Below, piece after piece: positions 18,831 through 21,605 of a stretch of DNA of 64,000 nt. Position 1 is the first letter of the stretch. Every line of letters starts with the position of its first letter. The stretch is from Alphaproteobacteria bacterium (GTDB taxonomy: Bacteria; Pseudomonadota; Alphaproteobacteria; CAAHEQ01; UBA3637). The notes below the pieces were generated by a model, which ran no database searches, was not told where the DNA came from, and saw only the letters and a program-made list of their open reading frames with translations. A program made the translations under genes and the position numbers. The DNA lies in NCBI GenBank assembly GCA_017962565.1, contig JAGCVC010000001.1, forward strand, positions 9,754-73,753. The letters run 5' to 3'.

Positions 18831-18859
18831 TTGACAAAACAAGAAAAATTTGATATAAT
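18831..18859 (+). promoter_or_regulatory. Consensus sigma70 promoter TTGACA-17 nt-TATAAT driving the pentapeptide-repeat gene
   Basis: Perfect -35 (18831-18836) and -10 (18854-18859) hexamers with 17-nt spacer, about 40 nt upstream of ATG 18900. Confidence 0.55.
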
Positions 18860-18899
18860 GTTTATATGATTCGTGTGTTTTTTTATGGAAGGAAAAACG

Positions 18900-21605
18900 A
18901 TGGCTGAAATAAAATTTCGAACGAATGATTTGGAAAGAGAAGAACTTCGTAAGAGAAAAATGGATCGAACGGATTACATTTTAGAAGCCGCCGGTATTAC
19001 AAAAGACAATTCTGACTATAATCGTTGGTACTTGGCAACATTGGTTAATGTGCACAATGCTTATCGTTTTTCTTACAATGGTGAAACAGAAGCTGATTTA
19101 GAAAGAGTTTTTGAAGGTTTTGTCAGCGCCATCAAAGAAAATCCAATTGATAAATATGAAGCGGCAACAAAAGAATTTTTATACGAAAGGGTGGTTTTAC
19201 AACTTGATAAAGCTCAGGGCGATTACGCACATACGGCTACGTATGAAGAAATGCGGGAAACCCTTAACAAAACGATGTTAAGTGGTATAAAAATACGGGA
19301 ACGAAATAAAACAGCATTCCCAAAAGAATTTTATAAAGAAAATGGCAGCACACAACGTTTAATATATGAAATACCTTTAGAAGAACAAGAAGAATCTGCC
19401 ATGCGCAACATAGATATGATTGTTGCAAAATACAAAGATAAAGGTATAGAGTTCAGTGCGGAGAAAAACAAATTTATTGTTAAAGGTAACGAAATTGGAC
19501 CTGAAAAATTTTTTACATCCAAAAAGGATAGACTTAACAAGTTTTTCAGCTTAGAGCAAAATCGGAAAACTTTTGATGCAAGCGACCAAAAATTGTTTGA
19601 TGTCATTCAAAGCGGTGATTTTGAAAAATTTGCCGAGCTTCGAAAACAGCGCGGTACAAATCGTGATAAAATGAATGAAAATTTAAGAAATGCTTTAGCT
19701 GATGAGATTGTATTCCACGAAATTTCAGAATGTTGGAACACCAAAGAAAGCCAAACACCCGAAACTTTATTTGAAACAATACGTGAAACTTCGGAAAAAT
19801 TTTCAAAGTCCGGGGAACTTGTAAGAAAAGAATCCGAAAAGGATGTTTTGGGCCGCATTGATACGGTTATGTTCTCCATTCTACCAGAAGATTTGGCTAC
19901 ACAGTCAACATTCAGAAATTGGAAAAGTTGTATGCACGCAACTGGTTGTAATCATTACTATGTCGACGATTCAATCGGAGAGGGTAGTATTATTGCCTAC
20001 GGTTATGATTCAAGAGAACCCTATAAGATGGTTTCTCGTCTTTTGATTCATCCTTACCAAGATAATGTTTCGGGTGAAATTGCCTACAAAGTCAATGATC
20101 GTATTTACGGACGCAACAATATCGGTTTTAGAAAAGCCGTTGAAAAAGTGACAGAACATTTTAACGAAGGAAAGGCTGGTATTTATCATTTTCCATTTGG
20201 ATTATATGATGATAATAGAAGCAACGACAGTTTTGTCCTTTTTCCTGAAAAAGATGGTGTAGTTGACTTAACAAATTTCAGAAAAGATGAAGACAATGTG
20301 ATTTCTTTATCCGGTCTTGATTTTTCAAAGGTCAAGGAAATCAAGGTACCTGAAGGTGTTTTAATGGAATTCAAGGCCTGTATCTTTGAGGGTGATTTGT
20401 CAAAATGTGAAGGGGCTTCTTTTGAAAACTGTTCTTTTAAGAATGCTGTCTTACCTGAAAATGCCAAATTAGAAGGAAGGGTTTCTCTTGAAAACACCCT
20501 AATCCCCGAAACAGTTGATTTCAAAGAATGTGTCTTTAACAACTGTATCTTTGAGGGTGATTTGTCAAAATATGAAGGGGCTTCCTTTGAAGACTGTTTT
20601 TTTAAGAATGCTATCTTACCTAAAAATGCCACATTAAGAGGAAGTGTTTCTTTGGAAAACACCCTGCTTCCTGAAACAGTTGATTTTGAAGAATGTATCT
20701 TTAAAGACTGTATCTTTGAGGGTGATTTGTCAAAATATAAAGGGGCTTCTTTTGAATACTGTTCTTTTAAGAATGCTGTCTTACCTGAAAATGCCACATT
20801 AAAAGGAAGGGCTTCTTTTGAAAACACCCAGTTTCCCAAAACAGTTAATTTTCAGGTACATCATGCTGAATTTATAAAAAATTATGTCGATACGAAAGGG
20901 ACAAAGCTTGAAGAAGTAACGACGACACTTAAAGATATCGAGATTCCTGACGGGGCGGATTTGTCTTCTATAAAAGATTTAACAATCCGTGGTCCTTTTA
21001 AAATAGGTAGGGGTGTTAAACTTCCTGAAAAAGTTGTTTTTAGTCAGGCCATAATCGATCAAGATTTAAGTGAGTATCAACAAACAAAAATGGAGCTGAA
21101 AAGCTGCGTATATAATGAAAATTGCAAATTGCCTCACACAGGAAATGCAACAATTAAATACGGCGCAATAACAACACATGAAAATGCATTCAAGGAAATT
21201 ATTGATATTCCTGTGGATGGTGAGGATTCAACAATCGGCATACCAAAAACGGTTCCTCTAACGGTCCCTACTGTGCAAAAATTGTTGGATACATATTCAG
21301 GAATTATAGCTCTAAATGAAGAATTAGTTGAAAAGGCAAAAACGCAAGAATTGGAAGATGACGATGTGTCCGGTGTAGTTTATTGTGTAGCCAAAGATGA
21401 AAAGACAAAAGAAGAATTTTTGGAAATGGCTCCAGCGGCTAAGATAATGACAAAGGAAGAGTTTATTCGGTCTGCAAAAACAAATATTCAGGATAAAAGT
21501 GATACTCCTTCAAAATTGATAAAAACGATACAAAGTAATCAAGTTTTAACAGATAAAGAACAATTGGCTTTGCAAAGGGTGCGAAAAAACCCGGGTATGG
21601 AATAA
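18900..21605 (+). CDS. Large (about 901 aa) protein with three tandem 55-residue pentapeptide-like repeats (FEGDLSK.EGASFE.C.FKNA.LP.NA.L.G..S.ENT..PETVDF.EC.F..C); effector candidate
   Basis: Long ORF; ATG at 18900 has RBS GGAAGGA (track start 18873 lies too close to the predicted TSS); repeat copies start 20379, 20544, 20709. Confidence 0.7.
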   Translation: MAEIKFRTNDLEREELRKRKMDRTDYILEAAGITKDNSDYNRWYLATLVNVHNAYRFSYNGETEADLERVFEGFVSAIKENPIDKYEAATKEFLYERVVLQLDKAQGDYAHTATYEEMRETLNKTMLSGIKIRERNKTAFPKEFYKENGSTQRLIYEIPLEEQEESAMRNIDMIVAKYKDKGIEFSAEKNKFIVKGNEIGPEKFFTSKKDRLNKFFSLEQNRKTFDASDQKLFDVIQSGDFEKFAELRKQRGTNRDKMNENLRNALADEIVFHEISECWNTKESQTPETLFETIRETSEKFSKSGELVRKESEKDVLGRIDTVMFSILPEDLATQSTFRNWKSCMHATGCNHYYVDDSIGEGSIIAYGYDSREPYKMVSRLLIHPYQDNVSGEIAYKVNDRIYGRNNIGFRKAVEKVTEHFNEGKAGIYHFPFGLYDDNRSNDSFVLFPEKDGVVDLTNFRKDEDNVISLSGLDFSKVKEIKVPEGVLMEFKACIFEGDLSKCEGASFENCSFKNAVLPENAKLEGRVSLENTLIPETVDFKECVFNNCIFEGDLSKYEGASFEDCFFKNAILPKNATLRGSVSLENTLLPETVDFEECIFKDCIFEGDLSKYKGASFEYCSFKNAVLPENATLKGRASFENTQFPKTVNFQVHHAEFIKNYVDTKGTKLEEVTTTLKDIEIPDGADLSSIKDLTIRGPFKIGRGVKLPEKVVFSQAIIDQDLSEYQQTKMELKSCVYNENCKLPHTGNATIKYGAITTHENAFKEIIDIPVDGEDSTIGIPKTVPLTVPTVQKLLDTYSGIIALNEELVEKAKTQELEDDDVSGVVYCVAKDEKTKEEFLEMAPAAKIMTKEEFIRSAKTNIQDKSDTPSKLIKTIQSNQVLTDKEQLALQRVRKNPGME
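20379..20873. repeat. 3 x 165-bp near-identical tandem coding repeats
   Basis: tgtatctttgagggtgatttgtcaaaat... recurs at 20379, 20544 and 20709 with more than 85% identity. Confidence 0.8.

Follow-up and report, generated by a model that had tools for sequence, protein, structure and literature searches.

A lineage-restricted protein of gut and rumen Alphaproteobacteria joins a conserved N-terminal head to a predicted, hypervariable beta-solenoid

Introduction

Pentapeptide repeat proteins (PRPs; Pfam PF13576 and PF00805), such as MfpA, Qnr and Rfr32, are defined by eight or more contiguous pentapeptide repeats (PMC8145042). Repeat solenoids are also joined to catalytic domains in several effectors. 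This includes SopA and NleL, which carry a pentapeptide-like beta-helix and a HECT-like E3, and IpaH, SspH and SlrP, in which leucine-rich repeats (LRRs) accompany an NEL domain with a catalytic Cys; YopM belongs to the same comparison group. In Rickettsia SrfD, pentapeptide repeats are needed for Sec61 binding (PMC11258249). Here, we analysed a gene for a 901-aa repeat protein in a 64-kb stretch of an Alphaproteobacteria genome (assembly GCA_017962565.1, contig JAGCVC010000001.1, positions 9,754 to 73,753; hereafter the window), which resembles both groups in part.

In contrast to PRPs, the pentads of this protein occur in runs of no more than three, broken by 1- and 7-residue insertions, and their 55-aa period is no multiple of the 20-aa coil. 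The protein also adds a 440-aa head, its rod is hypervariable among orthologues and it has no sign of DNA mimicry. In comparison to SopA/IpaH/YopM-type effectors, the order of parts is reversed, with the head at the N-terminus, and this head resembles neither HECT nor NEL domains in sequence or fold; for this protein, secretion and any host target are putative, and the organism is no known pathogen. Two further groups bear on the head. Jumbo-phage proteins of phrog_17056 (Ralstonia RsoM2USA_132, Atu_ph07 AUZ95153, Lu11_0207) have a 130-aa core that is homologous to that of the head and keeps its invariant pattern, but differ in their N-terminal region and in their C-terminal DUF4116, LRR or acidic tails, and are equally uncharacterised. 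PcfJ-like proteins (PF14284; Enterococcus pCF10-type plasmids) show a similar order of residues, x-C-x ... Y ... G-x2-I-x-x-L ... P ... (Y)G ... V-x-x-W, and PcfJ itself has no known function.

Results

Conserved head and distribution of the family

Judged by sequence comparison, the gene is a lineage-restricted one of uncultured gut and rumen Alphaproteobacteria that encodes a modular protein, and the only conserved part of this protein is an N-terminal domain of 440 aa, which the first-pass annotation of the window had overlooked. The first ~440 residues were common to 62 homologues (31–60% identity, 31 invariant positions), all of which diverged completely beyond this point, and the full-length head was confined to one bacterial lineage. 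AlphaFold2 modelled the whole protein with a predicted local distance difference test (pLDDT) score of 85.6 and residues 1–450 with a pLDDT of 91.8 and a predicted template modelling (pTM) score of 0.86. The head had no match in Pfam, NCBIfam, PHROG, PADLOC or PDB sequences, nor among plasmids using tblastn. Foldseek matches of the head to GNAT and malonyl-CoA-decarboxylase structures were weak and were not taken as evidence.

The predicted gene of about 901 aa behind a strong promoter was recovered as an open reading frame (ORF) with a good Shine-Dalgarno site (Table 1). In-frame alternative starts lie at 18873 (GTG) and 18885 (ATG), and the ATG at 18900 was favoured because homologues begin with MAEI.FR or MSEIKFR. 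The gene is already known to NCBI under the label 'pentapeptide repeat-containing protein': MBP5533899.1 ('MAG: pentapeptide repeat-containing protein [Alphaproteobacteria bacterium]') falls within the same 90%-identity cluster, and an identical protein was found on an ENA metagenome contig. Relatives in species-representative genomes occupied 16 loci, with one match per genome, all of them in Alphaproteobacteria metagenome-assembled genomes (MAGs; CAG:495 included) from goat, yak, deer and water-deer gut or rumen and from human gut. The suggestion that the gene belongs to an intracellular bacterium has no basis, as all relatives are such gut or rumen MAGs. An antisense ORF across the repeats, set aside in the first-pass annotation as an artefact of the repeats keeping a frame open, does exist; we likewise called it spurious because its translation shows the 55-aa period of the sense repeats and the sense frame has 62 homologues.

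Repeat region

Structure prediction of the region following the head gave a beta-solenoid and no other fold, in agreement with the first reading of the sequence. Pfam PF13576 (Pentapeptide_3) matched four stretches at 58.5 bits, against a gathering cut-off of 27 (E = 7.4e-16). PF00805 scored 23.1 against 20.2 overall with no single stretch passing, and PF13306 (LRR_5, BspA type) scored just below its gathering threshold. When pentads were parsed with the published PRP consensus and definition (PMC8145042), 36 had fitting residues at i-2 and i, yet no more than three followed one another in register, short of the eight or more that define PRPs. The proposed pentapeptide beta-helix thus holds as far as a solenoid with Pentapeptide_3 matches, whereas its pentads are interrupted. 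We regard the region as a probable beta-solenoid that is pentapeptide-like and irregular, because in-register runs never exceed three pentads; its class is not fixed by these data, as LRR proteins outscored PRPs in a fold search with the solenoid, leaving PRP and LRR-type solenoids inseparable. Over the three central repeat units, pLDDT was only 63–80.

These three 165-bp units lie head-to-tail as first described, with codon-aligned starts at residues 494, 549 and 604 (Tandem Repeats Finder, TRF: period 165, 2.9 copies, 88% matches). They are not near-identical, as had been claimed, but share 82–87% nucleotide and 64–76% amino acid identity in pairs, with divergence towards the end of the third unit. 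Each 55-aa unit contains 3+1+2+3 pentads, with three 1-residue inserts between them and one 7-residue insert last (ASFEN-CSFKN-AVLPE / n / AKLEG / r / VSLEN-TLIPE / t / VDFKE-CVFNN-CIFEG / DLSKYEG). Codon differences between the units comprised 51 non-synonymous versus 8 synonymous changes.

Judged by its relatives, the predicted solenoid is the fast-evolving, hypervariable part of the protein, in which both repeat type and copy number differ. Repeat periods of 34, 36, 38, 39, 42 and 55 aa were found among the homologues, whose repeat regions carried Pfam hexapeptide, DUF3737 or pentapeptide matches. Length variation of the kind anticipated for the 165-bp unit was seen in relatives, with ~72 residues of solenoid missing from one close relative (P0118) and lengths of 1091–1299 aa within one 90%-identity cluster, but not in the protein's own cluster, whose three sequences all have 901 aa. 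This variability in solenoid type and length argues against a shape-constrained DNA mimic and favours a diversifying binding surface.

Core module and its wider family

The C-terminal part of the head forms a 130-aa alpha/beta core with the invariant pattern S-x2-P-x-D, W-x-S-C-M, Y, R-x-L-I-x-P, Y-G and L-Y-x-D. When 1.84 billion cluster representatives were searched exhaustively with a profile (E ≤ 1e-3), this recovered 1,328 representative proteins, most of which matched only profile positions ~328–460, equating to residues 322–450. Profile–profile comparison makes the homology of this core with the wider family secure (hhalign probability 99.8%, E = 3.4e-28, 128 columns). Members occurred in jumbo phages of Ralstonia, Agrobacterium, Pseudomonas, Erwinia and Dickeya and in uncultured phages of 636–642 kb, with tblastn against phage genomes giving E values of 5e-8 to 2e-5 at 30–34% identity. 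They were also present on many environmental contigs, and all were annotated as hypothetical. Relatives matched phrog_17056; a direct PHROG scan of the protein's own head was negative. The C-terminal halves of these relatives consisted of DUF4116 repeats or YopM/IpaH-type LRRs. In one relative (P0227) the core was fused to ParB_N and a weak GNAT match below threshold, and in another (P0256) it stood beside a PcfJ domain within one protein. A zinc site formed by C344, H346, C350 and H352 was rejected as a family feature, since only C344 is kept in the wider family.

One member, the 725-aa QQO90336.1 of Erwinia phage pEa_SNUABM_5 (L022, 2114–4291), is labelled 'putative exonuclease SbcD'. This label looks unfounded, as a PDB sequence search gave no nuclease similarity.

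The core may also have a distant relative in the PcfJ domain found on conjugative plasmids. Using a small PcfJ alignment built from plasmid matches, hhalign gave a score of 24.2 against the core (E = 1e-3, probability only 22%), compared to 11.2 ± 1.8 for 60 column shuffles (~7 standard deviations), and placed the cysteine of the PcfJ H-C-V-G motif on that of the core S-C-M. The Pfam PcfJ model (PF14284) did not match the protein at E ≤ 1, and a word-indexed protein search with a PcfJ segment returned no match. PcfJ-domain genes were found on Enterococcus plasmids that typing placed among conjugative or mobilizable ones, and one of these genes adjoins a DNA methyltransferase gene. A literature search on RF32 genomes, DUF4116 and PcfJ found nothing usable.

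Promoter

The perfect TTGACA-17-TATAAT motif reported upstream of the gene is present, 41 nt 5' of the ATG, and matches the sigma70 consensus at 12/12 positions. We add that it carries an extended -10 TG, which had gone unmentioned. Its rarity was also confirmed: a search of both strands of the window found one 12/12 site only, compared to a mean of 0.03 expected from dinucleotide-preserving shuffles (3 of 100 carried at least one), and five sites with at most one mismatch versus 1.15 expected. The host organism clearly uses sigma70-type promoters, with sites of at least 11/12 preceding rpsB, the giant gene starting at 9211, the divergent 1567-aa neighbour and several other genes. Similarly, most orthologues had sigma70-like promoters, usually with TGn, at the equivalent relative position. 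This included TTGACG-17-TAGAAT with TG in the closest full-length relative (L018), TTGCAA-17-TAAAAT (L009, L012) and TTGCGT-17-TATAAT (L007). Because genes of the window use sigma70-type promoters and orthologues carry equivalents, the motif very probably functions as a promoter and ranks as the best in the window, with a transcription start predicted near 18866. The 'very strong constitutive transcription' first proposed goes further than a consensus match allows and was overstated.

Neither an Rfam family nor any meaningful repeat was found in the 474-bp divergent intergenic region. In three human-gut MAGs (L009, L010 and L012), a conserved palindrome, TATGACAAATATTGTCTAT, was located ~40–60 nt 5' of the -35 element of the homologue's promoter. 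This palindrome could act as an operator, and the window lacks it.

C-terminal region and secretion genes

The small alpha/beta domain that follows the solenoid was common to the closest relatives P0118 and P0002 only. The basic tail is a candidate translocation signal. Across the family, the last 30 residues had a mean net charge of +3.2, compared to +0.7 for other proteins of the window, and 43 of 55 full-length members ended in R or G (mostly -RG, -SR, -ER or -GR). The family members themselves were acidic overall (mean net charge -18; -32 for the protein described here). A virB8–virB11 type IV secretion cluster (52.5–63.1 kb) lies 31 kb from the gene, and its 2331-aa VirB10-domain protein, with a long repeat region, is reminiscent of CagY. 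Export through a VirB-type system would fit the tail and this cluster, both of which are circumstantial.

Genomic setting and neighbouring genes

The window is chromosomal and carries dnaE, tsf, rpsB, uvrD and alr together with two tRNA genes. None of the synteny with its genes was conserved in the 16 related loci, and no integrase or other mobile-element gene was found beside the gene in the window. The gene is located inside a stretch of lower GC content (32.5–35% across ~10000–26000, compared to 37–42% elsewhere in the window), which may be a genomic island. This stretch also holds the divergent neighbour, two GNAT-like or ORFan genes, an acid phosphatase and membrane ORFans.

The divergent neighbour encodes 1567 aa with 7.2 tandem 117-bp repeats (39 aa, helical, HEAT-like), has a near-consensus promoter and ends in a Gly-rich tail (...PGGAGR) resembling the tails of the family described here. 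It had no convincing match in Pfam, PDB or PADLOC. Similar-looking motifs raised the possibility that it shares the Cys-containing module, which BLASTP and hhalign rejected; the two are not homologous. Two large ORFans of 2526 and 905 aa have Cys-rich C-termini and carry at their N-terminus a prepilin-like leader plus hydrophobic segment (...GRSMLE(M/T)L.VLAIIGIL...), and similar N-termini were encoded near the family gene in L005, L010 and L015. Two tandem paralogous ORFans (423 and 414 aa), preceded by an 11/12 promoter match, both begin with MSESL(I/V)(E/K)K(Y/F)NLP(L/F)KE; in Pfam, the former had no match and the latter none at E ≤ 1e-4. Finally, a 195-aa ORF upstream of a LolD-like ABC ATPase suggests a partial duplication, because both end in nearly the same peptide (...PQLAAK.D...HLENG.LVEEK).

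Table 1 Positions of the gene, its parts and other features in the 64-kb window
Feature	Position	Strand	Remarks
-35 hexamer TTGACA	18831..18836	+	read from sequence
Extended -10, TG-a-TATAAT	18851..18859	+	TG at 18851-18852, hexamer at 18854-18859, 17-nt spacer to -35
Shine-Dalgarno-like GGAAGGA	18887..18893	+	6 nt before ATG; read from sequence
Coding sequence, 901-aa protein	18900..21605	+	ATG at 18900, stop ending at 21605; identical to P0001
Conserved head	18900..20249	+	aa 1-450; helical subdomain and alpha/beta subdomain
Core module	19863..20249	+	aa 322-450; W341-x-S343-C344-M345, R380, P385, Y403-G404 and Y436-x-D438 invariant
Cys344 codon	19929-19931	+	within invariant W-x-S-C-M
Predicted beta-solenoid	20265..21179	+	aa ~456-760; Pentapeptide_3 matches at aa ~500-650
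Three head-to-tail 165-bp (55-aa) units	20379..20873	+	codon-aligned; TRF coordinates 20378-20851
Antisense 217-aa ORF over repeats	20186..20839	-	judged spurious
Small alpha/beta domain	21180..21494	+	aa 761-865; pLDDT ~85-93
Basic C-terminal tail	21495..21602	+	aa 866-901; low pLDDT, probably disordered
ORFan, 2526 aa	1631-9211	-
Divergent neighbour, 1567 aa	13722-18425	-	117-bp repeats at 15948-16806
Promoter of 1567-aa neighbour	18487..18458	-	TTGACA-18-TATACT with TG
tRNA-Gln	24994-25068		inside far end of lower-GC stretch
tRNA-Arg	26316-26392		just past lower-GC stretch
ORFan, 905 aa	28365-31082	-
195-aa ORF / LolD-like ABC ATPase pair	35165-35752 and 35749-36438	-
Tandem ORFan, 423 aa	41909-43180	-
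Tandem ORFan, 414 aa	43220-44464	-
Promoter match upstream of tandem ORFans	44513		11/12
VirB11-like ATPase	52546-53535	-
2331-aa protein, C-terminal TrbI/VirB10 domain	53550-60545	-	~2000 aa of beta-flower and RHS-like repeats precede domain
CagX/VirB9	60651-62261	-
VirB8	62383-63144	-

Discussion

We tentatively favour an effector-like protein, in which a conserved head is combined with a variable binding rod, as a plausible though not yet probable explanation for this gene. Partners would bind to the variable solenoid, and the head would contribute an activity that is conserved and possibly depends on Cys, following the head-plus-solenoid logic of SopA, IpaH and YopM-type effectors. The VirB-type type IV secretion system whose genes lie 31 kb away may export the protein, with its basic tail serving as the signal.

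Several observations weigh against this explanation. The gene is probably highly expressed, but this expectation comes from the promoter consensus alone, and near-consensus promoters are common in this genome because 7 of the ~37 genes in the window have an upstream match of at least 11/12. The tail of the protein ends in ...RVRKNPGME and not in Arg. A single invariant Cys, as read from the alignments, is no proof of catalysis. The type IV secretion call is based on virB8–virB11, and type IV secretion genes were unlinked to the family gene in the 16 other loci. Finally, the jumbo-phage and plasmid relatives fit a role in intracellular conflict equally well.

This last point leads to the main rival, that the protein is derived from mobile elements and acts inside bacterial cells in defence, anti-defence or as a DNA-transfer accessory, like the polyvalent proteins of phages and plasmids. 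We consider this a serious possibility, although an unlikely one. It is consistent with the presence of the core in jumbo phages and in the 636–642 kb uncultured phages, with the phrog_17056 matches of its relatives, with its fusion to ParB_N and a weak GNAT match and with its position beside PcfJ in another relative. The location of PcfJ genes on conjugative or mobilizable Enterococcus plasmids, one by a DNA methyltransferase, points the same way, as do the PcfJ alignment, which exceeded its shuffled controls with Cys placed on Cys, the gene's lack of conserved synteny and its location in a lower-GC stretch. A match to the NCBIfam model of the Hailong effector HalA was also found, but it was weak (26 bits against a cut-off of 250) and restricted to the repeats. 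Furthermore, the PADLOC anti-phage defence models did not match the protein, the head had no tblastn match among plasmids, only one bacterial lineage carries the full-length head, at one match per genome among the 16, and no integrase or mobile-element genes adjoin the gene in the window.

It seems clearly improbable that the protein is an abundant structural or adhesive component of the cell surface or extracellular space, with its solenoid under immune or phage selection. The strong promoter, a beta-solenoid architecture also seen in adhesins and internalins, the variation in repeat copy number and the excess of non-synonymous differences would all be expected of such a protein, and the divergent neighbour is another large repeat protein with a near-consensus promoter. 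However, no N-terminal signal peptide was evident by inspection (no predictor was run), the protein has no lipobox, autotransporter barrel or anchor domain, and a globular conserved head with an invariant Cys would be unusual for an adhesin.

A coincidental promoter in front of an ordinary, modestly expressed hypothetical gene is more doubtful still and, in our view, highly improbable. The genome is AT-rich (33–35% GC here), the window often shows matches of at least 11/12, and a perfect one arose in 3 of 100 shuffles, but the motif is intergenic, stands in the correct place 41 nt ahead of an ATG that has a Shine-Dalgarno site, carries the extended -10 TG and has counterparts in the corresponding position upstream of orthologues.

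The first-pass annotation had raised a DNA-mimic role, but a classical PRP mimic that, in the manner of Qnr or MfpA, shields or blocks topoisomerases is very unlikely indeed to be what this 901-aa protein is: despite the Pentapeptide_3 match (E = 7e-16), the acidic protein (net charge -32) and repeat units that each appear acidic by inspection, in-register runs stop at three pentads, pLDDT across the units is only 63–80, LRR proteins outscore PRPs in the fold search, conservation lies in the 440-aa head and not in the rod, and orthologues place hexapeptide, DUF3737 or other repeats here at other lengths and copy numbers, which a DNA shape would not tolerate.

The effector-like explanation can be extended further, to an improbable though not negligible proposal in which the W-x-S-C-M core would be an undescribed, widespread Cys-dependent enzymatic domain carried on interchangeable repeat scaffolds. 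This domain would be in use in jumbo phages, in gut Alphaproteobacteria and, as PcfJ, in conjugative elements, with pentapeptide-like, LRR or DUF4116 scaffolds steering it to different targets, and the protein described here would act as a type IV-secreted effector made at a high level.

The more interesting content of this locus lies in the uncharacterised head and core family, the hypervariable solenoid and the possible secretion tail. At 50% identity, the core family comprises more than 1,300 clusters, with no Pfam model and no solved relative, and extends to jumbo phages and possibly to PcfJ of conjugative plasmids; its activity, once worked out, would annotate thousands of 'hypothetical' proteins. 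Such Alphaproteobacteria of gut and rumen have come to light through MAGs alone. With its probably high expression, conserved head and hypervariable solenoid, in a genome that carries VirB-type genes, this protein is a concrete candidate for a part in their interactions with hosts, neighbours or phages.

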